Positions 1 through 64,000 of a stretch of 64,000 nucleotides of DNA are shown piece by piece. A program made the translations under genes and the position numbers. The notes beneath the pieces were generated by a model. That model saw only the letters and a program-made list of their open reading frames with translations, made no database searches and was not told the DNA's origin. How positions within the stretch are numbered: the stretch's first letter is position 1; every line of letters starts with the position of its first letter. Origin of the DNA: Escherichia phage fEgEco12. The stretch lies in the sequence record PP777464.1, one strand, 5' to 3'.

Positions 1-26
1 AAACTTGTTTATGATAAGGTTGAATA

Positions 27-242
27 ATGACTACCAATGAAATGATGCAGGTTATTTGGGATAAAGGTTGCGATCTTAAAATCACCAGTACTGATGTTCG
101 TGTATTCAAAACTGAATATATGGAGTACTTGGACCTTGATACTTATAATAATATTGTATCAATTGAACACAAAGGTGCAGTACTGGAAACAATTGACGTA
201 GTACTGAAGAAAGCTACCGACCTATTAGGAGCGGCAGTGTGA
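27..242 (+). CDS. hypothetical protein (71 aa)
   Basis: ATG ORF at head of + strand gene series. Confidence 0.45.
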   Translation: MTTNEMMQVIWDKGCDLKITSTDVRVFKTEYMEYLDLDTYNNIVSIEHKGAVLETIDVVLKKATDLLGAAV

Positions 243-395
243 ATAACAAAGAGTGGGAAGAGTACCGTAAGAAGTGCAGGGAGTTTGATAAAGAACTAAC
301 TGGTACAGTGAATGCAGTAATGTGGGTATCTGTAATTATTGCAGTTCTTGCGTTGGGTGCTATTATTATTAATAAATTATTCTAAGGCGAATATC

Positions 396-596
396 ATGTT
401 TACTTTATATCTCGCAGTAGTTCTCACCAATGGTGAAATCACTCGTACTATTGGTGAAGGTGTATATAAAACACCAGACCAGTGCTACTCTGCTACTCAT
501 TGGCCTCGCGATAGTGGGGATGAAACACGCACTGAATTCAAATGCATGAAAGTAAAAGGTGATTTTGTTAACCTTAAGGTTATCGAGGCGAAATAA
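396..596 (+). CDS. hypothetical small protein, hydrophobic N-terminus
   Basis: in-frame ATG at 396; the track ORF at 339 begins with TTG. Confidence 0.4.
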   Translation: MFTLYLAVVLTNGEITRTIGEGVYKTPDQCYSATHWPRDSGDETRTEFKCMKVKGDFVNLKVIEAK

Positions 597-1111
597 TGGA
601 TATTAATGAGTTGTTGATCTTATTGTTTAATCGTGGAAATGATGTAAGACGTTCTGAATATCAAGACAAAATTCACATTGAAACTGATAAATGTTATGGT
701 AAAACAACTCATGAGATTTTGAAGCCAAATGGCAAACGATATGCCGATGTATGTTTTCATGAACGAAGTGATGGTAGTGAAATAATCAGTACTGAAATTG
801 TGTTTTATGATAGATCCTCGGCAGGTTCGTATGAAATAGAACTTATATATTGTCCTGGTTCAGAAACACACAATAAACGTCAGATATTATATGATGTTTA
901 TTCACCTCCAGGTGTAGCTGAATATTTTGTTATTGATTACAGTACTGAAGAAAGTGTGTTTCAACAGAGCTTGATTCATAACTTCCAGTTGAATGATCCA
1001 AATGTACCAAAGTTGTTCAAACTACTCGATACTATCGATGTTGATTTTGAATTTGTTATGTGCATTAGAACTTCCTTGATCGATGAATTTATGGAACTAC
1101 TTAATATATGA
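596..1111 (+). CDS. hypothetical protein (171 aa)
   Basis: ATG overlaps upstream stop (TAATGG), translational coupling. Confidence 0.5.
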   Translation: MDINELLILLFNRGNDVRRSEYQDKIHIETDKCYGKTTHEILKPNGKRYADVCFHERSDGSEIISTEIVFYDRSSAGSYEIELIYCPGSETHNKRQILYDVYSPPGVAEYFVIDYSTEESVFQQSLIHNFQLNDPNVPKLFKLLDTIDVDFEFVMCIRTSLIDEFMELLNI

Positions 1112-1329
1112 ATCGTTACTACATTGTGTATGAGCATGTATCTGAGTTTAATAATGTACGTGGTTATAAGAAAGAAGTACAGAAGATTGATGTATTTGTT
1201 CGTGCATTAAGTCCAACACATGCACTATTTAAATTGTTTGATGAAGTAACTAAGTACAACACACCAAAAACACAACGCTATATTGAAACAGTACATAGTG
1301 TAATACTCACTGAATATGATGGAGAATGA
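1108..1329 (+). CDS. hypothetical protein (73 aa)
   Basis: ATGA stop/start overlap with upstream gene. Confidence 0.5.
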   Translation: MNRYYIVYEHVSEFNNVRGYKKEVQKIDVFVRALSPTHALFKLFDEVTKYNTPKTQRYIETVHSVILTEYDGE

Positions 1330-1332
1330 CAA

Positions 1333-1551
1333 ATGAATTTATATCTAGTTGAAGGGTCAGTACAAGTATCCAAGCAAGACGGAGAAGGGTATCGTTTTTC
1401 ACATGTAGAATATTTTAAGTACGTAGTAAAGGCCGATGGTCAGTACGACGCAGAAATTCAGGTTGAAGAATCATTCCGTAAGAAGAATGATATTGGTAAA
1501 TTTGAATACCAAGACTTACAATTCACTGTATGGCCTAGCATTAATGACTAA
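1333..1551 (+). CDS. hypothetical protein (72 aa)
   Basis: ATG 4 nt after upstream stop. Confidence 0.5.
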   Translation: MNLYLVEGSVQVSKQDGEGYRFSHVEYFKYVVKADGQYDAEIQVEESFRKKNDIGKFEYQDLQFTVWPSIND

Positions 1552-1552
1552 G

Positions 1553-1759
1553 ATGTGGTGGTGTCATGGTGTCTACAATGTCTATGAATATGGTAGATTC
1601 AAAATGAGCAGTACCTATGCCAGACGTGTTAATGCGAAAACCCAAGTTGATGCTGCTTGTGAGATTGTAGAGTGGTATGCAGAGTTCAATGCAATTGAAT
1701 ATATGTACGAAATAGTTACAATAAATGTTGTACAAATTGACACGTCTTTGATACAATAA
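1553..1759 (+). CDS. hypothetical protein (68 aa)
   Basis: in-frame ATG just after upstream stop; longer track ORF 1436 overlaps the previous gene. Confidence 0.4.
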   Translation: MWWCHGVYNVYEYGRFKMSSTYARRVNAKTQVDAACEIVEWYAEFNAIEYMYEIVTINVVQIDTSLIQ

Positions 1760-1792
1760 CTACATCAAAAAACAACTGCAACTGAGGATACT

Positions 1793-2455
1793 ATGTTAGT
1801 AAATCTTAATTTCATCACTTCTCCTGATTGGGCATTGCGTGGTGTTTCTTTGAACTTTAAAGAAACTAATTTCGACTACATTGGTGATTGTACTTTAGTT
1901 AATGCTACATTTGATCCTCATCATCCTTTTTGGGCTGAAATTCATGATCCTAATGTAAACAATAGTACATCTGTTATGACTATTGTACAGACGAAACATA
2001 CAGGTATCCTCGCAGGTTACAGACCAGGACATGCGATTGAACACTTCACTGATTATGATGTAGTAGATGAGTATCCAATGATCCATGAAGATGGAAGTTT
2101 ATACACGTCAGAAGACTTCCGTGCTATCTTTAATAGTACTGATGACATTCTACCAAGTGGTCGTCCACGCCCTGAGTCTTATCTTATGCACCCGTCTTAT
2201 GGTGTAGCAGATACGCTTGAACAGATTTTGACGAAGTACAAGAACCTTATTGAAGGTCCAGAAGAAATTGTCTTGTGCTATCATCCAGTACTGAAGTCTG
2301 ACCAACCAGAGAGTGGTGGGTGGCGTTGGCATAAGAATGGTGAGTACATCGGTACTAAGCGTAGTAAAGAACGCTTTGAGTACTTGTATGATGAGCCAGA
2401 TGTTGAGGTTGTTTTATGTTATAATTTTCTTAAGGTGAAAAAGAAATGTATCTAG
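1793..2455 (+). CDS. hypothetical protein (220 aa)
   Basis: ATG with GAGGA RBS upstream. Confidence 0.55.
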   Translation: MLVNLNFITSPDWALRGVSLNFKETNFDYIGDCTLVNATFDPHHPFWAEIHDPNVNNSTSVMTIVQTKHTGILAGYRPGHAIEHFTDYDVVDEYPMIHEDGSLYTSEDFRAIFNSTDDILPSGRPRPESYLMHPSYGVADTLEQILTKYKNLIEGPEEIVLCYHPVLKSDQPESGGWRWHKNGEYIGTKRSKERFEYLYDEPDVEVVLCYNFLKVKKKCI

Positions 2456-2688
2456 TATTGAGTTTTGTAGTTGCATTATTGTTTATGTTCTACCCTACAC
2501 TAGTAGCAGTAGCCACTAAACGAAAGCTGGTGGATATCACTACTGTATTCTTGCTAAACGTGGCACTCGTTCTAGTGTCTATTATCATTCCCGTGAGCTT
2601 TACGGTTATTGATATGGCATCTGTATTACTATTCGTCTTCAGTTATCTTATGCTTATTGAAGAAAAACCTGTTGACAAACGTTTGTAG
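2446..2688 (+). CDS. small hydrophobic membrane protein
   Basis: ORF; two predicted hydrophobic helices. Confidence 0.5.
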   Translation: MYLVLSFVVALLFMFYPTLVAVATKRKLVDITTVFLLNVALVLVSIIIPVSFTVIDMASVLLFVFSYLMLIEEKPVDKRL

Positions 2689-2746
2689 TACTGTATAATG
2701 GTTCTTGTAGTCTGAAACTTAACACTTAAACTTGAGGATATAAAAC

Positions 2747-3073
2747 ATGTTATCAGTTCTAATTTCAATTCCTGCTCTAATTCTTTTATGGGTTATGGTT
2801 TTCGAATTCTTCATTAAAGACGAAACCGAGCGTGATGAGTTTCGTGAGTTGTTTATGTTAGACTCACCCATTGCACGAATCTTCTTCGTTGTAGTACTTA
2901 TTTCAGTACTGTCATGGTTAGTAAGTTTTGTATTACCAATTGGACCATTTGTTTCAATTATGAATTTAGTTGAGAACATTGTTGGTATTGTGTGGTTTAC
3001 TAATGCATTGTTTGCTGGTAAAGTTTCCATTTGGTTTGATATCTTGAAAGATAAACTAACTAGTAAGAAGTAA
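2747..3073 (+). CDS. small membrane protein
   Basis: ATG with GAGGA RBS; hydrophobic segments. Confidence 0.5.
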   Translation: MLSVLISIPALILLWVMVFEFFIKDETERDEFRELFMLDSPIARIFFVVVLISVLSWLVSFVLPIGPFVSIMNLVENIVGIVWFTNALFAGKVSIWFDILKDKLTSKK

Positions 3074-3099
3074 CGTTCAAAAAGTCTCTAATAGTATTA

Positions 3100-3134
3100 A
3101 ATACTTCTGTACAAATAATATGTGCAGAAGTATT
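3100..3134 (+). other. intergenic hairpin (10-bp perfect inverted repeat AATACTTCTG/CAGAAGTATT)
   Basis: inverted repeat between stop 3073 and ATG 3152; no T-run. Confidence 0.5.
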
Positions 3135-3151
3135 ACTCGTTAGAGGTTATA

Positions 3152-3517
3152 ATGAAAAAATATATAAGAATGATAATGGTGTTTGTAGTATTCATGCTTT
3201 ATTCAAGGTTCAGTACAGCCGTACCTGCTTACCTTGATTGTATGGGAAACGATGGAACATGGCATGTACTTTCTAATGACCCACAAAATGGAAACAATAT
3301 TGTCGTAGATAATGAGGTTTACCGTTTCAGGGCCGAGAGTTTGATTGGGAATAAAAAGGTATCGACATATAAATCAGATGCTGGTATAATAGCAAATGTA
3401 ATATTGATAGTGGACCCCAAGACAAAGGATGGGGATATTTACATAGTCATTTATCAAGATTCGTCGAACAAACGCGATCAGGATATTGATAAATTGAATA
3501 TTCATTGTGAACTTTAA
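3152..3517 (+). CDS. putative secreted protein (signal-peptide-like N-terminus)
   Basis: ATG with GAGG RBS; N-term MKKYIRMIMVFVVFML. Confidence 0.5.
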   Translation: MKKYIRMIMVFVVFMLYSRFSTAVPAYLDCMGNDGTWHVLSNDPQNGNNIVVDNEVYRFRAESLIGNKKVSTYKSDAGIIANVILIVDPKTKDGDIYIVIYQDSSNKRDQDIDKLNIHCEL

Positions 3518-3527
3518 GGTATAACAA

Positions 3528-3911
3528 ATGATAAACGATGTAATGCTTTATGTATTAATTACTCCGATTCTTATTAACTCAGTAATAACTATTTCAATGG
3601 CATTATTTGGTATAGTAGCAATTGTTTATGCTGTTAGTACTGGGAAGTATACTTTAATTAGTAAGGTTGATTCATGGTTCGCATCTGATAGTGTACCATA
3701 TTCAGCTAGTATGATTACGATTGGTATTCTAATCGTTGCATTTACACTGCACTGTATTGGTTTTATTAATACAAGTATTTTTTCAGTTTTTATTGGTCTA
3801 TCATTATATCCATCACTTTGGTACTTGATTTATGTAATCGATGTTTGGTATAATAACTACAAGCAGTACAAAGTGAAGAAATCCATTTTATCCAAAGGAA
3901 ACAAATCATGA
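3528..3911 (+). CDS. membrane protein (about 4 hydrophobic helices)
   Basis: ORF; strongly hydrophobic. Confidence 0.5.
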   Translation: MINDVMLYVLITPILINSVITISMALFGIVAIVYAVSTGKYTLISKVDSWFASDSVPYSASMITIGILIVAFTLHCIGFINTSIFSVFIGLSLYPSLWYLIYVIDVWYNNYKQYKVKKSILSKGNKS

Positions 3912-4258
3912 AAGTAATTTTGTTTTTTGTTTGTATGATTATATGTGGTATGTCTTATGCAGAACCATTACCTGGACTAGTCTGTACTGAAGGTGATATT
4001 AAACACATTTACCAAGGTGATAGCGATGACCATACTATCGTTTATATCGATGGTGAAGTGTATAATTTTGTTAAAGAACATACTGTAGGTGACATTAGTT
4101 TTACGCAGTACTCGAATGATACTGATCCCAATATGCTTGCATTTCTTCAAGTTGATGTATATGAAGAAAGTAATGGCGAACAGTATGTTAAACTTGTGAT
4201 GATGCGTAAGGCAGCAAAACAGGCAACATTCGGTGGCTTGTGTAAATATGAGGACTAA
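3908..4258 (+). CDS. putative secreted protein
   Basis: ATGA overlap with upstream gene; signal-like N-terminus. Confidence 0.5.
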   Translation: MKVILFFVCMIICGMSYAEPLPGLVCTEGDIKHIYQGDSDDHTIVYIDGEVYNFVKEHTVGDISFTQYSNDTDPNMLAFLQVDVYEESNGEQYVKLVMMRKAAKQATFGGLCKYED

Positions 4259-4454
4259 ACATATGTTGATTTATCAATGTGGTAACATTCGTGTTATGCA
4301 GCATCCCTACTTACAAATCTTTGATGTGCAGCAGTATATGGAAGGTGATGATCCAAGAACCTATGGTCGTAAGTATGATTACTTCACTGTAAAGCAGTGT
4401 CATAACATCAAAGAAGTACGACAATTAGTTCAAGAACTTCAAAATAAAGGTTGA
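4233..4454 (+). CDS. hypothetical protein
   Basis: ORF; start uncertain (alternative ATGs at 4248 and 4263). Confidence 0.4.
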   Translation: MACVNMRTKHMLIYQCGNIRVMQHPYLQIFDVQQYMEGDDPRTYGRKYDYFTVKQCHNIKEVRQLVQELQNKG

Positions 4455-4481
4455 CTTCGGTCAACCTTTTTTGTTATAATT
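4449..4481 (+). terminator. composite terminator-promoter: hairpin AGGTTGACTTCGGTCAACCT + T-run, TTGACT inside stem, TATAAT downstream
   Basis: 8-bp stem hairpin, T6 run, -10 TATAAT 4475-4480. Confidence 0.7.
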
Positions 4482-4509
4482 ATTTCATCAACTACTGGGG
4501 ATTTTAATT

Positions 4510-4950
4510 ATGTACGTATATCGTTTTGAACTTAAATTCAGTTATATTGAACCTAACTTAGATCCAGCAAAAACAGTAGGGCCGTTCGCACGGTACTCTT
4601 CACGATACAGTACTAAAAATGGATTTGACCGTTTGTGCATGACCACGCCTTCGCAATTCCAACCAGAACCAACTGAAGATGGAATCTATTCAATCAAACG
4701 TGGCTGGGCATTTGGCTGTCAGAGTTTGAATGATTTGTTTAAGTTCTTTACTATGGACTTGGGTAAATTACATCGTGCAGGGTTTGCTGTATCAGTATAT
4801 GAAGTTCCTGATAATCATGTTGACATTGGTCGTAGTCAAGTTCAGTACTATTGTGGTAGTGCCAATCTGGTTCGTATCATGTCAGTGAGAGAAGCAAAGG
4901 ATGAGTACCGCCAAAGTAAAAGAGTAATACATGAGGCTGTATATGGATAA
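4510..4950 (+). CDS. hypothetical protein (146 aa)
   Basis: ATG after conserved leader CATCAACTACTGGGG. Confidence 0.55.
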   Translation: MYVYRFELKFSYIEPNLDPAKTVGPFARYSSRYSTKNGFDRLCMTTPSQFQPEPTEDGIYSIKRGWAFGCQSLNDLFKFFTMDLGKLHRAGFAVSVYEVPDNHVDIGRSQVQYYCGSANLVRIMSVREAKDEYRQSKRVIHEAVYG

Positions 4951-5287
4951 GACACAAATAGAATTAAAAAAATTTGTATCGTTTTATCTACCCAATGACC
5001 CACGTTGTACACAATATGATGTTGCATATTACAATGCATTGACTACACAGTTAATGAAGAAATTCAAACAGTGTTTGACTGTATTCAATGATGATGGTAG
5101 ACGTAGATATAGAATCATTCCAATGAATGATGAAAACGATAACTACTTTGACTTTGATGTTGTTTTTCGAGCATACAATGATGATAGAATAAAATTAAAT
5201 TATGAGCAAATAATGCTTGACCTGAGTGTTATCTGTGTTATAATTACTCACATAGCCGAACTTGATGGTTTAAAAGAATGGTATTAA
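4931..5287 (+). CDS. hypothetical protein
   Basis: ORF; alternative ATG at 4943. Confidence 0.45.
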   Translation: MRLYMDKTQIELKKFVSFYLPNDPRCTQYDVAYYNALTTQLMKKFKQCLTVFNDDGRRRYRIIPMNDENDNYFDFDVVFRAYNDDRIKLNYEQIMLDLSVICVIITHIAELDGLKEWY

Positions 5288-5301
5288 CTTAGAGGATAAT
5301 C

Positions 5302-5568
5302 ATGAAGCTTAAATTACAATACAATGGTTTTACTTTGCGTAACGACACTGAGTTTGTCAATCGTTCACCAGGTGCTGAGTTGTTTTTGCGAGAGATGAAC
5401 ATTCCTTTCGTCATCACTACTGTTGGTGACCGTGAAGTGCTACAATACGCAGAGCATCCAGTTATTGATGTTCCGTGGTATTCTGAGCATATGTATATGG
5501 ATATGGCCCGTCGCTACGACTGTAAGTTCGTAGTTGAAGGTGATAAAATTACAGTCCAATTCAAATAA
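5302..5568 (+). CDS. hypothetical protein (88 aa)
   Basis: ATG with GAGGA RBS. Confidence 0.5.
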   Translation: MKLKLQYNGFTLRNDTEFVNRSPGAELFLREMNIPFVITTVGDREVLQYAEHPVIDVPWYSEHMYMDMARRYDCKFVVEGDKITVQFK

Positions 5569-5579
5569 GGTAACTTAAA

Positions 5580-5873
5580 ATGATCAGTACTTCAGTAAAT
5601 GCAAGCATCGTGGCAGACGTAGAAATGGTTAAAGAATGTACAGACGAAACCCTTCGCAACATGTACATCAATGATTTGATTTCAGAGTACGGAAGTCGTG
5701 GTGTTCATGAGTTTGTTCGCCTAAGCGGTGAATTGATGAAGAATCGCATTCGTATGAAGCTTAATGTGCATCCAAAAGCATGGGCGTTTACAATGAAGTA
5801 CGCTGAAGATATTGTTGAGTTGCGTCGCAATGATGTGTATAATCGTTTACACAATGGTACATTAAAGGACTAA
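5580..5873 (+). CDS. hypothetical protein (97 aa)
   Basis: ATG ORF. Confidence 0.5.
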   Translation: MISTSVNASIVADVEMVKECTDETLRNMYINDLISEYGSRGVHEFVRLSGELMKNRIRMKLNVHPKAWAFTMKYAEDIVELRRNDVYNRLHNGTLKD

Positions 5874-5879
5874 ATTATA

Positions 5880-5911
5880 GGAATCCGTAAAAGGATTCCT
5901 GTTCTTGTTTG
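5880..5911 (+). terminator. intrinsic terminator-like hairpin GGAATCC(GTAAAA)GGATTCC + T-rich tail
   Basis: 7-bp stem, followed by TGTTCTTGTTT. Confidence 0.55.
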
Positions 5912-5923
5912 TAAGGTAATAAA

Positions 5924-6148
5924 ATGAAATATCTAGTACTAGTACTGCTATTCTTGAGTACTGTTGTATGTGCTAAACCAAAGTATCATGTAGTGTGTAT
6001 CAACGAGATGGAAGGATATACTGAAACATATAAGAACCATATTGTTGAAGTTGCAGCCCAAGGTTCCTATGGGACCATCATCTTCCTTAAGAACAATGTG
6101 ATTGTTCAGTACAAAAAAGATTCAAATTGTAAAGTGACTAAAAATTGA
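5924..6148 (+). CDS. putative secreted small protein
   Basis: signal-like N-term MKYLVLVLLFLSTVVCA. Confidence 0.5.
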   Translation: MKYLVLVLLFLSTVVCAKPKYHVVCINEMEGYTETYKNHIVEVAAQGSYGTIIFLKNNVIVQYKKDSNCKVTKN

Positions 6149-6163
6149 TCTAGATCATTTTTT
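6146..6163 (+). terminator. palindrome TGATCTAGATCA + T6
   Basis: 12-bp perfect palindrome followed by TTTTTT. Confidence 0.35.
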
Positions 6164-6218
6164 CAGATATTCTCTGTAAATAATAGCAGTACAGAACATT
6201 ATTTTACGGAGGTGTAAT

Positions 6219-6455
6219 ATGGAAACTATAATCATCATATGTGCGTTGTTTGCATTTTTGGTAATGTGGTCACCAACATTCATTGCATATAAAATGAAAA
6301 ATAAAAATGCAGAAGCAATTATGTACGTAAACTTATGTTGCATACTAACTTATGGAATACTTTTATTCTTTACTGAATTTACATTAATCCCAGTAGTAGT
6401 TTGTTCATCAATGTTTATTTGGTTGTTTCTGCTTTATGAATCTATTAAAAAATAA
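6219..6455 (+). CDS. small membrane protein
   Basis: ATG with GGAGG RBS; hydrophobic. Confidence 0.5.
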   Translation: METIIIICALFAFLVMWSPTFIAYKMKNKNAEAIMYVNLCCILTYGILLFFTEFTLIPVVVCSSMFIWLFLLYESIKK

Positions 6456-6463
6456 AAGATATA

Positions 6464-6490
6464 GGGTTGGTAATATGCCATCCCTTTTAC
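6464..6490 (+). terminator. hairpin GGGTTGG..CCATCCC + T-run
   Basis: imperfect 7-bp stem then TTTTAC. Confidence 0.4.
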
Positions 6491-6509
6491 TTTATGTGGG
6501 GTTTAATTA

Positions 6510-7082
6510 ATGAATAGAAAAGGTAAGTTCAAAGTATCAAAGAAGAACAAAAGTTCTAGATTTAGACCTATAACTTTAACTTTTAAGGCTAAAGAAGAAT
6601 TAACTGCACTTAGTAAAAAGATAATTTCATCTAAGATTAAAGTATCATACGTAAATTCGTTAAAATTTCAGAAGGTTAAACCACAAGACAAACTCATTTC
6701 ACTTATATTTGAACGTAATGATTTTGAGATATTAGTAGATGATTATAGAGCCTATAATGCTGGATTCATCCATGTCACTTGTAATACCGAACTAACTGAG
6801 TTGGAACATTTGACATGTATCATAAGTGTAGATAACGGTGTGGTGAAGTACAAATTTTTACATTTTACCAATATCAATAATGGAATGGGTGTACAATCCA
6901 GAACTATAGTACCTACATGTGATGTGACTAATTTAGCAAAGCTCAATGAAGAAGAATATTTTCAAGAAAGCATTGTAACTGAGCATTTAGATGCTATAAT
7001 AGCAACTTACAAAGAATGCATATGGGTTTTGAATGCGATAAAGCCCAAATTGTGTTTAATGAATGTCGTTCGTGATTTATAA
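6510..7082 (+). CDS. hypothetical protein (190 aa), basic N-terminus
   Basis: ATG ORF. Confidence 0.5.
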   Translation: MNRKGKFKVSKKNKSSRFRPITLTFKAKEELTALSKKIISSKIKVSYVNSLKFQKVKPQDKLISLIFERNDFEILVDDYRAYNAGFIHVTCNTELTELEHLTCIISVDNGVVKYKFLHFTNINNGMGVQSRTIVPTCDVTNLAKLNEEEYFQESIVTEHLDAIIATYKECIWVLNAIKPKLCLMNVVRDL

Positions 7083-7095
7083 CTGGAGATGTAGT

Positions 7096-7539
7096 ATGGG
7101 TTGGATTAACGTTAATAGCATTGAGCTAAATGAGCAAGACATATTTGCCTTTGTTAATTTGGTAGAGAACATTGCTATTAAAGGTCGTCTGTTTAGTTCA
7201 TCGGACGGTAAAAAATGGATCTCTCTTATGAACGACAATGGCGAGATTTATGACGTTATGCAACTACCTCATTGGGCTTATAAGAATACATCTGATGATG
7301 TGATGGCTGCTGTTATGCGTGAGTTTGAGAAGCTGCCAGGTGGTGATATTAAGAACATCGTATTCAATGCAGAACGCATGAACTACACACCAGAGCAGCT
7401 TCAACAGTTGGCAATTGCTGCCTATCAAGCTGCCATTAAGAAACCTGAATGTGTGATATTAAAGTACACACCGGACTTGAAGTTAACACTAGAAGATATG
7501 GATTCCTTTATCTTCAGTTCAGAACTTAAACAGTACTGA
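7096..7539 (+). CDS. hypothetical protein (147 aa)
   Basis: ATG with GGAG RBS; track start 7063 overlaps the upstream gene. Confidence 0.5.
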   Translation: MGWINVNSIELNEQDIFAFVNLVENIAIKGRLFSSSDGKKWISLMNDNGEIYDVMQLPHWAYKNTSDDVMAAVMREFEKLPGGDIKNIVFNAERMNYTPEQLQQLAIAAYQAAIKKPECVILKYTPDLKLTLEDMDSFIFSSELKQY

Positions 7540-7577
7540 TTTGACTTTGGGACAACCATTTCTTACGTGATATAATC
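7540..7577 (+). promoter_or_regulatory. candidate promoter with TGATATAAT -10 region
   Basis: TG immediately upstream of ATATAAT at 7568-7576. Confidence 0.3.
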
Positions 7578-7650
7578 TTAAGTGTCTGTAGAAATAAACA
7601 GCACATGAAGTATAAATATTAAAGTAATTTATCTCTTTAAGGAGTATGAA

Positions 7651-8034
7651 ATGGTTGATAAATGGAATAAGAAAGATCCATCGCATGATGTGGATATTTC
7701 TGGAATTGATAATGCACATAAGCATAAGTATCTTGATTCACTAGGTCTACTAAAGCCTGACCAAAGTCTTGCACATGATCGTCCTTCACGTGAAAAAGCT
7801 TTCAGTCTAGAATCACTAGGTCATGAATTGAATCGTGTATTTGAAGATCATCCAATTTATGTACGTGATATCATTGAGAAACTTAAAGTGACTCCTAAAG
7901 AGCACTTCAAGGCAACAGTACACGCAGCATTCCGTGCACTACATGAAGCACTAAAGAAAACTCATAACCTTCGTAAGATTCATGATGATATCGTGAACTC
8001 TATTGAAGGTGAAAAACATAAGTTTAAAAAATAA
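7651..8034 (+). CDS. hypothetical protein with SLGLL motif
   Basis: ATG with AAGGAG RBS. Confidence 0.55.
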   Translation: MVDKWNKKDPSHDVDISGIDNAHKHKYLDSLGLLKPDQSLAHDRPSREKAFSLESLGHELNRVFEDHPIYVRDIIEKLKVTPKEHFKATVHAAFRALHEALKKTHNLRKIHDDIVNSIEGEKHKFKK

Positions 8035-8040
8035 TTAAAA

Positions 8041-8074
8041 GGGGTTGACTTCAGTCAGCCCTTTGTCGTATAAT
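8041..8074 (+). terminator. composite terminator-promoter (GGGGTTGACTTCAGTCAGCCC hairpin, TATAAT 8069-8074)
   Basis: member of repeated hairpin family. Confidence 0.65.
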
Positions 8075-8121
8075 ATTTTCATCAAGTGATACAAAATACA
8101 AACAACGTGAGGTATTAAATT

Positions 8122-8235
8122 ATGCAAGGTACTAAATTCATCATCGCTGCCCTAATCGCTGCTGTTGTAGTGGGTACAGTATGTTATTCAATTGACACCT
8201 ATATCAATACACCTAGTGTTGAACAAACCAAATAA
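8122..8235 (+). CDS. very small membrane protein (37 aa)
   Basis: ATG with GTGAGG RBS; below the track length cutoff. Confidence 0.35.
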   Translation: MQGTKFIIAALIAAVVVGTVCYSIDTYINTPSVEQTK

Positions 8236-8243
8236 GGGATATC

Positions 8244-8507
8244 ATGGCTGAAACATTATCACTATATGCGTTAGTACTGTTATTTGTCGGATTTCTTCCC
8301 GCACTCATTACAGCCATTCGTGTTGTTAAACATGAAGCTGCATTGATTGTATGTAGTATTGGGTCGAACATTCTATTGTATTTCTTTTTGACAAATACTA
8401 TTGTACTGTTTGCTTTCTTTATCATGATTCTGTGGGTACTTGTAATTCTCGGATTCTTCATTTGGTCATTGGTTGATCCTAAGAAAAAAACAGGAGAAGT
8501 GAAATGA
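8244..8507 (+). CDS. small membrane protein
   Basis: ORF; hydrophobic. Confidence 0.5.
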   Translation: MAETLSLYALVLLFVGFLPALITAIRVVKHEAALIVCSIGSNILLYFFLTNTIVLFAFFIMILWVLVILGFFIWSLVDPKKKTGEVK

Positions 8508-8800
8508 AATTAATTATTGTAATGATGATGTGTTTGGCTTTCCCAGTACTGGCTACTCCTAATCTGGACTGCACACTGTTGCGTTCAGATGGTGACACAC
8601 TTGAAATCAACACATATGAACTCTTTGGTCCAAGTGTAGTGGAGAATGAAACCACCTACAATTTCAAAGCTATTGACTTTGAAGGTAATGTTCCAGTACT
8701 AACTACAATGACTATTGACAAAACTACTTTGCTCGGACGAATCACCACACAACGCGGAGAAAGTAAAACATTCACAGCGAAAGCTGACTGTAACTACTAA
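8504..8800 (+). CDS. putative secreted protein
   Basis: ATGA overlap; RBS GGAGAAG; signal-like N-terminus. Confidence 0.55.
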   Translation: MKLIIVMMMCLAFPVLATPNLDCTLLRSDGDTLEINTYELFGPSVVENETTYNFKAIDFEGNVPVLTTMTIDKTTLLGRITTQRGESKTFTAKADCNY

Positions 8801-8821
8801 TGGTATAGTACAGTGAAAATA

Positions 8822-8852
8822 GGGTTGACTTCGGTCAACCTTTTCTTTATAC
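8822..8852 (+). terminator. composite terminator-promoter (GGGTTGACTTCGGTCAACC hairpin)
   Basis: hairpin + T-run, TATACT downstream. Confidence 0.65.
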
Positions 8853-8881
8853 TATAAATATAGTCATAGAGAATAAACAAT

Positions 8882-10393
8882 ATGAAATCTATGGAGAGAA
8901 ATCAAATGCCAGGTCAATTTACTGATAAAAATGGCGGGAACATGGCAGGTCACTCTGATAAATGGAGTGAACGCAATCGTCGTCAAAATAGCTACCAAGC
9001 AGGACAGGGGTCACGTGGTTCACGTAATCAAGGGACAGGTTTAGCTGGTAAGGCAAACGCAGAAGCAGGTGAAGTTAAGAGTACTGAGAACATGACTGAG
9101 CTAGAAAAGCTACGTTATGTTAACTCATTAGGTCTTCTTAACGCAACACAGAAACAACGCCTTGCTGATATGGAACGTGCTGAGAAAGAACAAGCAGTTC
9201 CTAAAGAAGAACCAAAACCAGAAGCTCCTAAAGCAGCTAACCCTGTTAAAGAGTTATCTGATAACTTAGGTAAGATCTTTGCTAACAAACCACAGTTGAT
9301 TCAGGGTATTGTCAAAGCACTACAGGCAGTTCCTAAAGAAGAACTCAAAGGTAAAGCACAAGCTGTACTTGATGCAATGAAAGGTAATAAGAGCACTGAA
9401 CCTACTGAAGTATTCAGTACTATCATGCGTGCACTTGAAGGTACACACAAAGAAGATTCGAAAGAACCTGAACAGGGTGAAGCAAGTCTTGATGGTATTC
9501 TTAAAACTTTTGATAGTATTGGTAAAGCAGACCGTGCTAATGCCCAGCAAGTCAAGAATGTACTGGCTAAACTTGAAAACCGTTTAGAAGGTAAAGACGA
9601 TAAGGTTAAGCTCGTATCAGATGCAGTTAACAGTGCACTTAAATCTTATGTACAAGGTGAGAAAAGTCGCTTCGTAACAGCTATGGATGCTGCATTCAAC
9701 ACTATGAAAAAGTATGAAGCAGAACATGGTGAGAAAGTGACACCTGATGGATATCTACTACGTAAAGATGAAGAAGGTGCAGTTGAACAGAAAGATGTTG
9801 AGCCTGAGCAAGAAGATCTACCTGATACCGTTGATATGGATGGATACATTCATCGTCCTGAGATGGAAGAGTTTGGGTCAGATAAAGAAGGTTTTGAACA
9901 TGCAATGGCAGTATATAAAGCATTAGTTAAAAATCCAGATTATGCTAACCGTTTTGTTGACGAGTTTGATAGTGCATGGAATAACTATAAAGACAAAGGT
10001 TATGACTTCCCTGCTGAAGCTGCATTCTTTGAACTTGGTAAACTATTAGCTAAACATGGAATTGACGTTGGTTCATCTGATTCTGATGGTATGGAAGAAG
10101 AACATCTTGAAATGACTGATAAATCAATTCATGAACTTCAAAAGTTAATGATGTGGATATCCGAGATTGGTAAAAAAGCAGGTGCTGATAGTAAAAGTAT
10201 CAACAAAAATATTAGTTGGATTAAAGATAATGTTGGTAACAATGCTCGTAAACTTCAAAAGGCTTGGGCTGATTTAGTAAATGGTGCAGATGATGTTGAC
10301 ATTGAATCACCAGAAGCATATGAGTATGCACTAACTACACTTGATAACTCATTCAAAGAGTACGACCGTGGTGTTGGAAAGGATAAAAAATAA
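8882..10393 (+). CDS. large acidic/lysine-rich low-complexity protein with SLGLL motif
   Basis: longest ORF; better RBS (GGAGAG) favours ATG 8906. Confidence 0.6.
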   Translation: MKSMERNQMPGQFTDKNGGNMAGHSDKWSERNRRQNSYQAGQGSRGSRNQGTGLAGKANAEAGEVKSTENMTELEKLRYVNSLGLLNATQKQRLADMERAEKEQAVPKEEPKPEAPKAANPVKELSDNLGKIFANKPQLIQGIVKALQAVPKEELKGKAQAVLDAMKGNKSTEPTEVFSTIMRALEGTHKEDSKEPEQGEASLDGILKTFDSIGKADRANAQQVKNVLAKLENRLEGKDDKVKLVSDAVNSALKSYVQGEKSRFVTAMDAAFNTMKKYEAEHGEKVTPDGYLLRKDEEGAVEQKDVEPEQEDLPDTVDMDGYIHRPEMEEFGSDKEGFEHAMAVYKALVKNPDYANRFVDEFDSAWNNYKDKGYDFPAEAAFFELGKLLAKHGIDVGSSDSDGMEEEHLEMTDKSIHELQKLMMWISEIGKKAGADSKSINKNISWIKDNVGNNARKLQKAWADLVNGADDVDIESPEAYEYALTTLDNSFKEYDRGVGKDKK

Positions 10394-10402
10394 ACATTTA
10401 AA

Positions 10403-10428
10403 AGGTTGACTTCGGTCAACCTTTTTTT
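10403..10428 (+). terminator. terminator hairpin AGGTTGACTTCGGTCAACCT + T7
   Basis: same hairpin family. Confidence 0.7.
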
Positions 10429-10464
10429 GTAAATATTGTAGAGGGTTTTATAAGAGGTAATGCA

Positions 10465-10716
10465 ATGTTTAAATATGTTTTATTTTCACTTGTATTGTTT
10501 ACTGATATAGTTTATAGTACTGAATACCAGTGCTCCATTGCTAGACAGGAGTTTAGAAACGGTGAGTTCTATACCAAGTCTTACACTAGAGGATTGGTAC
10601 ATGACAATAATAAAACTATAGGGTTCAATGCATTTGATAACAAAGATCGATATACGTCTGGAATACTATCTGAACGTAAGTCGGATGTAATAGGTATCGA
10701 GCATGAATTCCGGTGA
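10465..10716 (+). CDS. putative secreted small protein
   Basis: signal-like N-terminus. Confidence 0.5.
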   Translation: MFKYVLFSLVLFTDIVYSTEYQCSIARQEFRNGEFYTKSYTRGLVHDNNKTIGFNAFDNKDRYTSGILSERKSDVIGIEHEFR

Positions 10717-11077
10717 CACAGTTGCAATGTGTAATGATATTGAGAGTACTAAGAAAGTATATACTAATGGTGAAACTACCTTTAGATTCCACAATCTTAC
10801 TACTAATGAAAGTTTATACTTCTACAACTGTAAAGAGTTCATTAAACCTGTGGATAACTCATGTGATATGCCGGAGCCAAAAGCTGCTGTATGTGAGGAA
10901 CCACAATCCAAAGCTGACAAAGATTCAAAAGATAAGAAAGACAAAGCTGACAAATCGGATAAAAAAGAAAACAAAAAGAAAGCTAAAGATGATAAAGATA
11001 AAAAGTCCCCTAAGCCAAATCCATTTGAAAAGCCAAAGAATGAAAAGCCAAAACCAGACATGACATGTAAAATATAA
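10703..11077 (+). CDS. hypothetical protein with lysine/aspartate-rich C-terminal tail
   Basis: ORF; KDKKDKADKSDKK low-complexity tail. Confidence 0.5.
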   Translation: MNSGDTVAMCNDIESTKKVYTNGETTFRFHNLTTNESLYFYNCKEFIKPVDNSCDMPEPKAAVCEEPQSKADKDSKDKKDKADKSDKKENKKKAKDDKDKKSPKPNPFEKPKNEKPKPDMTCKI

Positions 11078-11084
11078 AAGAAAA

Positions 11085-11117
11085 GGGTTGACTTCGGTCG
11101 GCCCTTTTTGCTATAAT
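11085..11117 (+). terminator. composite terminator-promoter (GGGTTGACTTCGGTCGGCCC, TATAAT 11112-11117)
   Basis: hairpin family; conserved leader CATTTCATCAACTACTGGAGG follows. Confidence 0.7.
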
Positions 11118-11143
11118 CATTTCATCAACTACTGGAGGCAAAC

Positions 11144-11557
11144 ATGTTAAAAGTTATTTTCCGTTCTATCAGTTCATTACTTCTTATGATTAGTTCAGTT
11201 TGTTATGCAAATGAAGTATCTGATTTATTTGAGAAGAATTACCCAACTGCACAAGAGATGGGTGTTTTAAAATGCAAGCTAACTTCGTACAACATCATCG
11301 GCAGTAAACTTGTACTGGAACATGAACGTAGTACACCAATCCCTCTAGTGGAAGAAGGTAGTACCTTTAGCTTCAAGTACGGGGTGAATGTAACATCTGG
11401 TGTAATGAACAATGTTGATGCAGAGACTGGTTCAACATGGAGTACTAGCGGTAAAGATGTGTTTCATCGTATGCGTGAAAATGGTAAACTGAAGTACGTA
11501 TATGAAAGTTCATTCATGAAACGTGTATTCATTATAAAAAATTGTGTACCAGCATAA
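11144..11557 (+). CDS. putative secreted protein
   Basis: signal-like N-terminus; RBS GGAGG. Confidence 0.55.
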   Translation: MLKVIFRSISSLLLMISSVCYANEVSDLFEKNYPTAQEMGVLKCKLTSYNIIGSKLVLEHERSTPIPLVEEGSTFSFKYGVNVTSGVMNNVDAETGSTWSTSGKDVFHRMRENGKLKYVYESSFMKRVFIIKNCVPA

Positions 11558-11568
11558 GGAACAACATC

Positions 11569-11844
11569 ATGCGTTCATTTGAAAACTTAATCGGTAAACT
11601 TCGCTTACAAGAAATTGAAGCTGATGTGAAGGAATTATCTGAAACTAAGAGTTACATTCATTTAGATGAACTGTTTATTAAGTACGGTGAGATTGGTTTT
11701 AAGTCATTATTTGTGTTTGTCATGAAGGTGCATAGTTTAAAGTACTTTGATTTGAGTTCAAAAGACGGACAACCAAATCTGTATTACATGTATTATCTTA
11801 AGAACATAGACGAAGCTAATACATTATTCTTAGAATATATGTAG
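11569..11844 (+). CDS. hypothetical protein (91 aa)
   Basis: ATG with AAGGAAC RBS; track start 11542 is TTG. Confidence 0.5.
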   Translation: MRSFENLIGKLRLQEIEADVKELSETKSYIHLDELFIKYGEIGFKSLFVFVMKVHSLKYFDLSSKDGQPNLYYMYYLKNIDEANTLFLEYM

Positions 11845-11853
11845 GGGTAAAAA

Positions 11854-12192
11854 ATGGAACAACATTTTGAATTAATTAATAAGGTATCATTTTATGTAGT
11901 ATCGTTAATTTGGGTGTATTACATGTTTTGTTACATTATTGCATTCTTCCGATACACGACCTTGTATCAACGCATATACTACGATGCACCAATTTCATTT
12001 TTGATGTTCAGTGCATGTACGTGGGGGATAATTGAAGCACTGGCATGTGGATATAGTACGGACGAATTAAATCTCGTATCGGTGTTGACATTACTAACAA
12101 TTGCTACTATGATAGCTACAGTTCCGATATTTTTGCTCTTTAAACTGCTTCATCGCATCGATGAGTGGCGTAATAAAATCCCTGAAAAGTAA
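11854..12192 (+). CDS. small 3-helix membrane protein, paralog family
   Basis: hydrophobic; C-terminal R..KIPE-type tail. Confidence 0.55.
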   Translation: MEQHFELINKVSFYVVSLIWVYYMFCYIIAFFRYTTLYQRIYYDAPISFLMFSACTWGIIEALACGYSTDELNLVSVLTLLTIATMIATVPIFLLFKLLHRIDEWRNKIPEK

Positions 12193-12201
12193 GGATTGAT
12201 A

Positions 12202-12543
12202 ATGATTTTTTACACTAATGCGTTTGCTTATGCCGTTGCATCAATCTACATTGTGTACTTCTTATTTGGTGGAGTACTGTACTTCTTTAAGTACAAAACA
12301 TTGTTTAACCGAATGTATCCAAATCATCCAATTGTAGTAGTACTTTTGATTATTTCTGTTGCTCACATCATTGTAGAAACAATAATGGGTATTAGTGCAG
12401 TACATTACAGTCTAGGTACTATTGTGATTATTACTATGATCATCGCATACATTTTAGTAATGGGTTCTGGTTTATTTGGGAATGTAGCAATGAAATTGTA
12501 TAATCGAATTAAAACCTTACGTGATAATCTACCGGAGCGTTGA
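12202..12543 (+). CDS. small 3-helix membrane protein, paralog family
   Basis: ATG with AAGGA RBS; track start 12196 is TTG. Confidence 0.55.
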   Translation: MIFYTNAFAYAVASIYIVYFLFGGVLYFFKYKTLFNRMYPNHPIVVVLLIISVAHIIVETIMGISAVHYSLGTIVIITMIIAYILVMGSGLFGNVAMKLYNRIKTLRDNLPER

Positions 12544-12544
12544 G

Positions 12545-12889: not shown

Positions 12890-12898
12890 GGGGTTGCT

Positions 12899-13536: not shown

Positions 13537-13537
13537 G

Positions 13538-13595
13538 TTGACAAACTCATTCAGTACTGTATAATGTTTATCAAGGGGATGAACTTCTCATCCCC
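13538..13595 (+). promoter_or_regulatory. sigma70-like promoter with leader hairpin
   Basis: TTGACA 13538-13543, TATAAT 13560-13565, hairpin GGGGATGAACTTCTCATCCCC. Confidence 0.6.
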
Positions 13596-13612
13596 ACAAT
13601 CGAGGAATTGTC

Positions 13613-14167: not shown

Positions 14168-14178
14168 GGATAACTTAT

Positions 14179-14355: not shown

Positions 14356-14383
14356 TTGTCACGTTAATTAAGTGAGGCGATAA

Positions 14384-62664: not shown

Positions 62665-62692
62665 TTGACAAAGTATATCAGTACTGCAATAA
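62665..62692 (+). promoter_or_regulatory. promoter TTGACA with weak -10 (CAATAAT)
   Basis: TTGACA 62665-62670. Confidence 0.45.
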
Positions 62693-62746
62693 TGTATCTC
62701 GTAGGGCGGCAATGGTGCGACGGCCCACAAAGTTAGGAGATTCACC

Positions 62747-63079
62747 ATGAGTACTTCAATCGCTATCGTTAAAGCTTTCATCCGTACTAATGTTTCCTCT
62801 GTATTCATCGACGGCCTCGACCGTAACGTAGAATACTCAATCATTATCGCACAAACGGCAAACGGTTCTCGGTACATCCTGAATGATAGTGAAGCAAATC
62901 ACTACTACTTCACTAAAGCCACTGGCTTTAAACGCATCGATGCTGATGTAGTATACGCTAAGATGAATAAGCTGGTAGATAAGATTAACGCTAAAGGTAC
63001 TATAGATTTACAGTACTGGACCGAAACCGATCCAGAGTATGGATCTCACCGCTACCTGAATCCAGGTATCAAAATGTAA
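62747..63079 (+). CDS. hypothetical protein (110 aa)
   Basis: ATG after TAGGAGA RBS. Confidence 0.55.
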   Translation: MSTSIAIVKAFIRTNVSSVFIDGLDRNVEYSIIIAQTANGSRYILNDSEANHYYFTKATGFKRIDADVVYAKMNKLVDKINAKGTIDLQYWTETDPEYGSHRYLNPGIKM

Positions 63080-63086
63080 AAAGTAC

Positions 63087-63148
63087 TTGCATAGTACTTA
63101 GATTCATGTATAATGTTTTACATAGAGAGGGGGAAATGGTTCTCCCTC
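63087..63148 (+). promoter_or_regulatory. promoter + leader stem-loop module
   Basis: TTGCAT 63087-63092, TATAAT 63109-63114, hairpin GAGGGGGAAATGGTTCTCCCTC. Confidence 0.65.
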
Positions 63149-63168
63149 CTAAATTAAGGAGTTTTATC

Positions 63169-63570
63169 ATGACCTTCTCAATCACTTCCTTCGCTGACGT
63201 TTTAGTACTGGCCCGGACTTTTGGTAAAGATGCACTGGAGTACGCTGTAAGTAATGGCACTATCCAACCGGAACAGTGCCGCATCATTGGAAACTGCAAA
63301 CGTTGGGCGGTTTCCAATACTATTGCACTGGAAAACTTCCACGATGGCAACAATGAATATTCTGTTGATGTAGTATTCGAAGCCGTTGATCTCGGCGGTA
63401 TCTATAATACTAACCTGAATGATGTGCGTATCGTTCGCACTGGGTTCGGTGCTTATGATGTATCTATTCGTGAAGCTATGAACACCGGATACATTAGCAA
63501 GGACTTACTTGCTCACATCATGCAGCTGTGTACGGAACGTAACGAAGCACGCACTATCTTAGGACTGTAA
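63169..63570 (+). CDS. hypothetical protein (133 aa)
   Basis: ATG after TAAGGAG RBS; track N-terminus is promoter read-through. Confidence 0.55.
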   Translation: MTFSITSFADVLVLARTFGKDALEYAVSNGTIQPEQCRIIGNCKRWAVSNTIALENFHDGNNEYSVDVVFEAVDLGGIYNTNLNDVRIVRTGFGAYDVSIREAMNTGYISKDLLAHIMQLCTERNEARTILGL

Positions 63571-63584
63571 GCGTTACACATCAC

Positions 63585-63604
63585 CAAACATCATAGGCCG
63601 CCTT
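63585..63604 (+). other. hairpin AGGCCGC(CTTGTA)GCGGCCT
   Basis: 7-bp inverted repeat; no T-run. Confidence 0.35.
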
Positions 63605-63638
63605 GTAGCGGCCTTAACTATATCAGGAGTACATACAC

Positions 63639-63848
63639 ATGATCTATACAGTATACAACGTTCTAGGCACTATTGCAGGCGTACATGATAACGTCGATGG
63701 TGCTATGCGTACAGTACTGCAACAGGTTCCACTAAAGCCTAAGACCATTAAGCAGATGACAGCACGACTAACCAGGGCGACGGCTGGCGTGGAAGTATGG
63801 CAGGACTATGGGGATACACAGATAATCGTAAGCGTAACGAAGGATTAA
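63639..63848 (+). CDS. hypothetical protein (69 aa)
   Basis: ATG after CAGGAG RBS. Confidence 0.55.
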   Translation: MIYTVYNVLGTIAGVHDNVDGAMRTVLQQVPLKPKTIKQMTARLTRATAGVEVWQDYGDTQIIVSVTKD

Positions 63849-64000
63849 TGCGTAAAAGGATTTAGTACTGAATCATAAAAAAGTCAAGGCATTTTTAAAC
63901 TTCAGCGTTAAAAAAATGCATAGGTAATCCCTTGACTTTTATGAATAAAAAGGGATTGGACTATGGCAAAATGCGTAGGGGGCTAAAGGGCGGGTAACCT

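Follow-up and report, generated by a model that had tools for sequence, protein, structure and literature searches.

The 64,000-nucleotide stretch of Escherichia phage fEgEco12 DNA analysed here (PP777464.1; called the window throughout) changes in base composition and codon usage near 43 kb, and we hold with high confidence that its GC-richer right arm (43,008-64,000, plus strand) is the direct terminal repeat (DTR; 20,993 bp) of this phage, in its right-hand copy. We think it rather probable that this arm is an array of immediate-early cassettes, in which a GC content of ~38-40% is kept by host-tuned codons together with a shared pool of early ORFans.

Base composition of the window

A first-pass annotation, made by eye, had described an AT-rich left part and a GC-richer right arm, and the measured GC bins, third codon positions and change-point all bear this description out. 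GC content was 35.4% over positions 1-42,700, 0.383 over 42,701-44,699 and 38.5% over 44,700-64,000. When the window was divided into 1-kb bins, mean GC was 0.354 on the left (standard deviation 0.024, n = 43) and 0.385 on the right (standard deviation 0.018, n = 21; Mann-Whitney p = 3e-6), and a likelihood scan placed the best single GC change-point at 43,410 (support interval 42,650-43,770; 2ΔlnL = 60). The simple strand-aware open reading frame (ORF) caller of this analysis predicted 83 genes in the left part and 54 in the right arm. Coding GC was 35.8% on the left and 40.4% on the right, and the difference held gene by gene (p = 3e-9). GC at the first, second and third codon positions (GC1, GC2 and GC3) was 0.417, 0.376 and 0.282 on the left versus 0.494, 0.348 and 0.370 on the right. 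Intergenic DNA had 34.0% GC on the right and 31.7% on the left; since the right-hand intergenic value lies below the right-arm coding GC, the shift sits in the ORFs and not in the spacers. Sliding-window GC, GC3 and the codon adaptation index (CAI) all separate the two arms, which differ significantly by bin and by gene. The size of the shift is modest, ~3 GC points within the window and 5 points when the genome of a relative is taken as background.

The right arm is a terminal repeat

Megablast placed the window in Asteriusvirus, the PBECO4/121Q/G17-type jumbo coliphages of 350-386 kb, where the closest relatives matched at 97-99%, and the window is almost certainly the final 64 kb of the fEgEco12 genome or a nearly identical one, its closing base being the end of the DTR. 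In the record of phage vB_Ec-M-J (OQ718158.1), a 'Direct Terminal Repeats' feature spans 1..21,525, and base 1 of that record aligns to window position 43,008. The records of G17 and WPEC3 open, in reverse complement, exactly at window position 64,000, while those of BF17, CRJP21 and E9.1 begin within ~20 nt of 43,008. The interval from 43,008 to 64,000 spans 20,993 bp, which is the DTR length published for the 374,733-bp genome of fEgEco12, where it was obtained using PhageTerm and agreed with restriction digests (PMC13070987). Elsewhere in the genus, terminal redundancies of ~20 kb (G17) and 20,668 bp (Sharanji) have been described, and the DTRs of fEgEco12, vB_Ec-M-J, Sharanji and G17 are the same object as the right arm. 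According to the literature and the OQ718158.1 annotation, the repeat would stand at both ends of the packaged genome; the window holds one copy. The DTR boundary at 43,008 falls inside the support interval of the GC change-point.

The GC step in related phages

As a whole-genome background we used a single relative, ECO103 4-12-1 (OR844650.1; 351,992 bp, with one collapsed DTR copy). Its DTR-equivalent has 38.8% GC compared to 33.8% in the remainder; the four 5-kb bins of the DTR are the top four of 70, and GC drops to 31-32% just past the far end. Gene GC3 was 0.369 in the DTR versus 0.248 in the rest (p = 3e-19). A tetranucleotide comparison, run on this genome, identified the DTR as the strongest outlier, its correlation with the rest of the genome being 0.52 compared to 0.67-0.88 for 15 other chunks of equal size. 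The DTR block was found at the same place in all Asteriusvirus records matched. In the distant Klebsiella phage fENko-Kae01, the annotated DTR (19,736 bp) has 37.3% GC versus 33.9% in the next 30 kb. Homologues in fENko-Kae01 were found for 19 of the 54 window DTR ORFs (30-70% amino-acid identity), all of them inside its DTR, and GC3 was the same for ORFs common to the two phages (0.367) and for unshared ones (0.358).

A comparable step is present in Pseudomonas phage PA5oct, in which RNA-seq has defined gp34-gp105 of the 39-kb DTR as early genes (PMC7318152). GC is 38.6% in this early region, 27.0% in gp1-gp33, which occupy the first 7.1 kb of the DTR, and 32.6% after the DTR. Because gp1-gp33 lie inside the repeat at 27.0%, the GC elevation follows the early class and not repeat status. 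Two patches of the PA5oct DTR (15,001-17,500 and 27,501-30,000) reach 46-51% GC in this 33%-GC phage and may be acquisitions from its 66%-GC host or from the host's other phages.

Promoter and hairpin cassettes

Between 44,696 and 63,848, at least 54 small ORFs (median ~90 aa, coding GC 0.404) lie on the plus strand; ~25% of this interval is non-coding, most ORFs have their own promoter, and relatives annotate only plus-strand genes here. The array consists of ~40 single-ORF units, each with an A-rich stretch, a near-consensus sigma-70 promoter, a GC-rich 5' hairpin and a Shine-Dalgarno sequence. Perfect TTGACA-N16/17-TATAAT sites number 12 in the right arm, 2 in 1-20 kb and 0 in 23-43 kb. Using a relaxed sigma-70 pattern, we found 39 promoters in the DTR ORF array, the strong ones all on the plus strand, and 106 promoter-like sites in the right arm compared to 70 ± 8.5 in shuffles. 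Allowing up to 3 mismatches, we found 29 copies of an extended motif, GTATAATGTTTTACATC, in the window, every one on the plus strand and within 43,394-63,124; chance would give 0.87 copies. In ECO103 4-12-1, 30 of 32 same-strand matches to GTATAATGTTTTACATC lie inside the DTR, and the first 50 kb of fENko-Kae01 has 10 matches, every one inside its DTR. The counts of perfect sites and the restriction of GTATAATGTTTTACATC to the DTR confirm the earlier suggestion that the arms use different promoter dialects. ECO103 4-12-1 has 30 perfect TTGACA-N16-18-TATAAT sites, all 30 on one strand, of which 10 fall in its 21-kb DTR.

A cassette begins with the A-rich stretch, followed by a -35 hexamer (TTGACA or the variant contained in AGTACTTGCAA), a 16-17 nt spacer, and TATAAT with GTTTTACATC behind it. 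The downstream half comprises an 8-9-bp GC-rich hairpin such as GGGGAGAA-ATGA-TTCTCCCC, the Shine-Dalgarno sequence and the ATG. The cassette at 60,188-60,281 (plus strand), for example, has TTGACA, a 16-nt spacer ending in CAGTACTG, TATAAT, GTTTACATCAAG, the hairpin GGGGAGAAtagTTCTCCCC, a Shine-Dalgarno sequence and the ATG of the ORF at 60,279-60,683. Among the repeat families formed by the cassettes, D1-D9 are of this main type and D10 is of a second type.

For 25 of the 29 leaders behind GTATAATGTTTTACATC, folding gave a hairpin (-10 to -16 kcal/mol), with a small ORF downstream. These leader hairpins are spread over 44,700-63,160 (for instance at 50,333-50,352 and 60,239-60,257) and start a few bases past the likely transcription start, in a predicted 5' untranslated region (5'UTR) of ~40-50 nt; the stem often contains GGAG. 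Across 23 copies, compensatory changes were found in 5 of 7 consensus stem pairs, and an Rfam search with the cassette hairpin matched no family. Hairpins of the main class follow the -10 hexamer and have no T-tract; because of this position and the missing T-tract, they are probably 5'UTR elements and not terminators. Terminator-like sites per 20 kb number 21 on the right and 18 and 20 elsewhere. The GC-rich hairpins that had been noted on the right are thus present, mostly as 5'UTR elements, while the terminators noted alongside them are not enriched. The leader hairpin may act as an mRNA stabiliser, or as a processing or regulatory site.

The second cassette type is exemplified at 56,496-56,531 (plus strand), where a stem-loop, AAAGGGATTGACTCCGGTCAGTCCCTTT, encloses the -35 hexamer and is followed by TATTAT; further copies start at 52,498, 59,765 and 62,517. 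This second element occurs in both arms (on the left in a related form, at 4,446-4,480 and 8,821-8,853); its stem-loop is terminator-like and includes the -35 hexamer TTGACT (AAAGGTTGACTTCGGTCAACCTTT), and the -10 hexamer that follows is preceded by TG in some copies.

The 8-bp palindrome CAGTACTG is present in 73 copies in the window compared to 1.1 ± 1.1 in shuffles. Coding DNA holds 41 of these copies, and the other 32 lie in the non-coding 15% of the window. Many promoters have a spacer that ends in CAGTACTG (TTGACA-N8-CAGTACTG-TATAAT), and 13 copies cluster near the DTR boundary, 10 of them in the DTR head (43,347-44,612) and 3 just upstream (42,909-42,987). With 919 copies (observed/expected 2.6), AGTACT is the top over-represented hexamer of the ECO103 4-12-1 genome; fENko-Kae01 is also rich in it, but PA5oct, the Justusliebigvirus PHB05 and E. 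coli are not. CAGTACTG may be the binding site of a phage protein.

Codon usage and the host

CTG, CCG, GCG and CGG had been singled out by eye as more used on the right, and the codon counts agree. From the left to the right arm, CTG rises from 9.7% to 27% of leucine codons, CCG from 8.4% to 27%, GCG from 8.6% to 17.6% and CGG from 0.7% to 16.8%. The codon style ascribed to the left part holds for AGA, which falls from 31% to 10% rightward, but not for TTA, which does not discriminate the arms because it makes up 33% of leucine codons in both. ATA falls from 32% to 10%. ATC, GGC and CGC are also more used in the DTR and ACA and CTA less, and AAG, GAG, GTG and TTG fall although overall GC3 rises; since several G-ending codons fall, a uniform mutational or conversion bias is disfavoured. 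Measured against E. coli ribosomal-protein and elongation-factor genes, the CAI was 0.448 on the right and 0.293 on the left (p = 1e-9). Over the 59 synonymous codons, the DTR-minus-rest change correlated with the preference of highly expressed E. coli genes (rho = 0.77), and the correlation with E. coli preference persisted when GC-ending codons were taken alone (rho = 0.72). In a regression, E. coli preference (t = 4.9) and GC-ending (t = 3.7) had independent effects.

These figures could reflect pure translational selection, in which immediate-early genes are tuned to the host tRNA pool with no gene flux. The higher CAI, the E. coli-directed shift even among GC-ending codons and the fall of AAG, GAG and GTG agree with such tuning, and so does PA5oct, where the elevation tracks the early-transcribed part. 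However, GC1 is up by 8 points and amino-acid usage is altered; CGG, which is not preferred in E. coli, shows the largest rise of all arginine codons; GC-ending keeps its independent effect; and the cassettes cross genera and mark breakpoints, as described below. Furthermore, 50 non-DTR genes directly behind strong sigma-70-type promoters are at background GC3 (0.254 versus 0.246). Because these genes are unshifted, transcription by the host polymerase alone does not raise GC, and a strong sigma-70 promoter is ruled out as a sufficient cause. We consider translational selection on its own unlikely.

Gene size was likewise ruled out as the cause, since among genes of <150 aa GC3 was 0.359 in the DTR and 0.263 elsewhere (p = 2e-12). 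ECO103 4-12-1 encodes tRNAs for ACA, AGA, GGA, TCA, AGT and Asn plus one with a CAT anticodon, and several of the cognate codons are depleted in DTR genes. Avoidance of phage-tRNA codons by the DTR was not supported: the A/T-ending cognates changed by -0.100 and other A/T-ending codons by -0.091 (p = 0.39).

A mutation or repair bias specific to the repeat could also raise GC, if the DTR, being present twice per genome and recombining in each cycle, gained GC through GC-biased gene conversion or exposure during replication. The step is found at the DTR boundary in three lineages, intergenic DNA is also GC-richer on the right than on the left, and the equilibrium GC estimated below is higher in the DTR. 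Against such a bias, the first 7.1 kb of the PA5oct DTR is below the genome mean, which weakens repeat status as a sufficient cause; coding DNA has moved far more than intergenic DNA; and the shift is codon-specific, with AAG, GAG, GTG and TTG falling. We give this explanation a low probability.

Substitutions and cassette exchange

Singleton substitutions that distinguish closely related phages were polarised. The DTR count was 151 AT-to-GC and 149 GC-to-AT changes, which corresponds to an equilibrium GC of 0.387 compared to 0.384 now; in the left arm, 42 AT-to-GC and 44 GC-to-AT changes gave 0.334 compared to 0.344 now. The two intervals are wide and overlap (0.335-0.443 and 0.247-0.436), the power of the comparison is low, and recombination imports may pass as substitutions. 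By these counts, each compartment is stationary at its own GC level, and the DTR does not drift towards 34%. Compared to vB_Ec-M-J, the left arm (1-16,300) is 99.2% identical, while the terminal repeat (44,696-56,770) is 96.5% identical with several ORF-sized indels; compared to the unique DNA beside it, the terminal repeat has a higher rate of evolution or a more mosaic structure.

The right arm matched 175 phage records and two left parts matched 64 and 36, the extra records being coliphages of 130-150 kb. The matches to these unrelated ~40%-GC coliphages comprise single promoter+ORF cassettes with 78-90% nucleotide identity. A promoter-hairpin-ORF-promoter unit at 57,099-57,422 (plus strand) is common to the window and PHB05 at 89% nucleotide identity, and the segments at 44,762-45,115, 45,152-45,283, ~53,140-53,350 and ~61,039-61,233 also match PHB05 or Phapecoctavirus- or Vequintavirus-type coliphages. 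In PHB05 the homologous ORFs stand behind the same promoter-hairpin cassette, at a locus whose GC (0.400) and GC3 (0.365) are near the DTR values. The end-points of alignments to three relatives lie close to promoters: for 28 end-points, which are partly common to the relatives and so not fully independent, the median distance to a promoter centre was 41.5 nt compared to 140 nt at random (P < 0.0002), and 68% were within 60 nt compared to 23% at random.

The first-pass annotation had suggested a distinct history for the arms, with the right arm acquired from a higher-GC relative. A one-off capture of the whole right arm from a higher-GC phage, with donor composition retained, would account for the deviation in GC, GC3 and tetranucleotides and for the segments that match ~40%-GC phages. 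However, all Asteriusvirus records found have the block, and in the same position; the same step is present in fENko-Kae01, whose orthologues are 30-70% identical, and in PA5oct; genes shared and unshared with fENko-Kae01 have equal GC3; and the matches to other genera cover single cassettes and not the block. DTR substitutions show no excess of GC-to-AT changes, and this stability of DTR GC disfavours a recent one-off acquisition. The DTR resembles a genomic island in its deviating GC, codon usage and tetranucleotide signature, but it is kept across the genus and beyond with no patchy distribution, shows no sign of amelioration, lacks a flanking tRNA, and borders on the genome end, not on attachment sites. 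We consider capture of the arm as a block very unlikely; what stands of the suggested distinct history is its weaker form, in which single promoter+ORF cassettes are common to ~40%-GC coliphages and breakpoints fall at cassettes.

Two further explanations can be dismissed briefly. That GC-rich hairpins and terminators between genes merely lift the average, as the 25% non-coding share and the ~25 GC-rich hairpins of the DTR might suggest, is refuted by an intergenic GC below the coding GC (34.0% versus 40.4%) and by GC3 itself (0.37 versus 0.28), and is highly improbable. An assembly chimera or artefact near 43 kb, which the abrupt change of composition and regulatory signals at a 2-kb non-coding stretch could bring to mind, is refuted and next to impossible, since the independent assembly of ECO103 4-12-1 is contiguous over the junction (42.7-45.2 kb) at 98% identity, an alignment to JNE01 runs across the DTR boundary from 42,768, and the boundary coincides with the physically mapped DTR end.

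Other features of the window

Three DTR products resemble known proteins: a DksA/TraR-type C4 zinc-finger protein of 85 aa (54,486-54,743, plus strand; Pfam PF01258, 36.9 bits with a cut-off of 24.9; PHROG 54), a GNAT-family acetyltransferase of 118 aa (54,807-55,163, plus strand; Pfam PF00583, 37.2 bits with a cut-off of 20.7) and a possible protein kinase of 213 aa (59,111-59,752, plus strand), which scored 16.7 bits with Pfam Pkinase, under the cut-off of 31.7. The last has 39% amino-acid identity to positions 16,257-16,775 of the fENko-Kae01 DTR, within ENKO_043, a 'putative protein kinase'. The remaining 7 of the 10 largest DTR ORFs had no function recognisable by Pfam or PHROG. The head of the DTR (43,008-44,695, ~1.7 kb, GC 0.385) is non-coding and has one cassette-type promoter at ~43,373-43,410. 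Tandem Repeats Finder detected repeats with periods of 8, 16 and 32 nt and units GGCTAGAC / GGATGGCT at 43,816-43,922, ~800 nt from the genome end.

The stretch just before the DTR (38,102-42,705, plus strand; GC 0.333, GC1 0.377, GC2 0.265, GC3 0.361) is a dense run of ~19 very small genes, which encode 60-75 aa apart from one of 219 aa. This run resembles the gp1-gp33 run of PA5oct (27% GC), which is there inside the DTR. On the minus strand, 19,665-38,017 holds ~15 paralogous genes of ~375-400 aa annotated in relatives as RCC1 ('regulator of chromosome condensation'); their GC3 of 0.236 is the window minimum and their GC2 is 0.459. The paralogues are spaced by hairpin terminators (GCCAGTACT...AGTACTGGC), and their order and copy number vary between relatives.

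The unique region at 1-19,660 carries 48 small genes on the plus strand in an AT-rich background (GC 0.354, coding GC3 0.308). Its annotation was taken from the relatives vB_Ec-M-J and WPEC3 (99% identity) and includes an HNH endonuclease, a virion structural protein of 503 aa (8,882-10,393, plus strand) and an endonuclease V/DenV homologue (15,768-16,283, plus strand). The 503-aa protein has 39% identity over 160 aa to positions 14,429-14,878 of the fENko-Kae01 terminal repeat, within ENKO_037, whose product was detected in virions by liquid chromatography-tandem mass spectrometry. A search for tRNA genes and known RNA families across the window found none.

Discussion

The reading that we favour is that the DTR ORFs are probably immediate-early genes of the host-takeover type, by analogy with the RNA-seq data for PA5oct. 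The first-pass annotation had offered different expression classes as one explanation of the shift, and the promoter-packed DTR, the cassette found only there and the early class of PA5oct argue for it. As a copy of the DTR would lie at each genome end, whichever end enters first would deliver the module first, and unmodified host RNA polymerase would transcribe it at once. Host-preferred codons would allow rapid translation by the machinery of the uninfected cell, and products such as the DksA/TraR-like zinc finger, the GNAT acetyltransferase and the possible kinase may act in host take-over. The promoter/hairpin cassettes of ~80-100 nt, similar to the PeSL cassettes discussed below, would provide homology for ORF-by-ORF shuffling, both within the genome and with co-infecting ~40%-GC coliphages that carry the same cassettes. 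The composition of the array would then follow the shared pool of early ORFans and not the resident 34%-GC genome, and host-tuned codons and cassette exchange may reinforce each other. We infer that this gene class stably maintains its higher GC and its distinct codon usage, which are no scar of a recent transfer.

Several points weigh against this reading. The assignment to early expression draws on promoter sequence and on the analogy with PA5oct. Selection on translation leaves the rise of CGG to 17% unexplained, given that this codon makes up 0.7% in highly expressed E. coli genes, as well as the rise of GC1 and the shift in amino acids towards more Ala, Gln and Arg, and the 50 genes behind strong promoters outside the DTR have not moved. 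Nucleotide-level matches outside the genus were found for only ~6 of the at least 54 DTR ORFs. The shared breakpoints and the low power of the substitution comparison count on the same side. In T5, the DTR has 40.0% GC compared to 37-38% in its neighbourhood; as it is only slightly richer, raised GC is no general rule for terminal repeats.

The repeat itself, terminal repeats with early genes (PA5oct, SPO1 and T5) and PeSL cassettes are already known. PA5oct, a Pseudomonas phage of the Arenbergviridae, likewise has a long DTR full of small ORFans, no phage RNA polymerase, TTGAC/TATAATA promoters and an early-transcribed DTR part that is GC-richer than the adjoining unique DNA. It differs in host and family, in its patchy GC (29-51%) and AT-rich first 7 kb, and in having neither GTATAATGTTTTACATC cassettes nor AGTACT enrichment. 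The takeover genes of Bacillus phage SPO1 are early genes with strong promoters. They form a host-takeover module of small genes that fills most of the 13,185-bp terminal redundancy and is associated with host shut-off (PMC10531801). SPO1 belongs to an unrelated family with another host, its DNA contains hydroxymethyluracil, and it has 24 genes in few operons compared to the ~40 single-gene units found here. In T5, according to the record annotation, the first DNA to enter is a 10.2-kb terminal repeat, whose pre-early genes serve host shut-off and have host-type promoters; unlike the fEgEco12 repeat, this repeat has 17 annotated protein genes, several of them larger, in two divergent groups, and an injection stop signal.

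In the T4-type phages RB49 and phi1, PeSL cassettes mark the breakpoints of insertions, deletions and replacements in a plastic region (Arbiol et al., 2010; PMC2839356). The DTR cassettes share with them the AT-rich upstream part, the sigma-70 promoter, a GGGG...CCCC stem-loop and the Shine-Dalgarno/ATG of an ORFan, and they too are concentrated in a plastic region, at breakpoints between relatives. They differ in that the stem-loop of the main DTR class lies in the transcribed leader without a T-tract, and is more probably a 5'UTR element, and in that they occupy the terminal repeat of a jumbo phage while PeSLs lie in internal hyperplastic regions. A term search of the Asteriusvirus and PA5oct papers found no mention of a GC or codon island, a DTR-exclusive cassette or sharing across genera; the Asteriusvirus papers give the repeat and its length, and the same search found nothing in them on its base composition, codons, promoters or cassettes. 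The compositional island is a modest new descriptive detail.

A more ambitious joint reading is possible but tentative: the long repeats of PBECO4/RaK2-like phages would be an integron-like exchange platform with a composition set by the pool, and CAGTACTG would be bound by a phage factor. If this were true, the shared cassette would allow immediate-early ORFans to pass from one phage to another when both infect the same host, the pool would span genera and link Justusliebigvirus, Phapecoctavirus and Vequintavirus with jumbo phages, and the CAGTACTG-binding factor would control the module or the genome end.

The GC and codon step, together with the DTR-exclusive motif, locates the physical ends of these 350-kb phages from sequence alone, which is relevant as numerous Asteriusvirus entries in the databases are collapsed or have an arbitrary starting point. 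In this little-studied jumbo-phage clade, the ~55-65 ORFans delimited by the step are the best candidates for roles in host take-over or anti-defence, and the array is a resource of ~40 natural, predicted very strong sigma-70 promoters with a stabilising-type 5' hairpin. It carries the PeSL-like shuffling of cassettes, described in T4-type phages, over to jumbo-phage terminal repeats. Finally, it serves as a warning that a compositional island in a phage need not mean recent transfer; here it appears to be an old, stable trait of one gene class.

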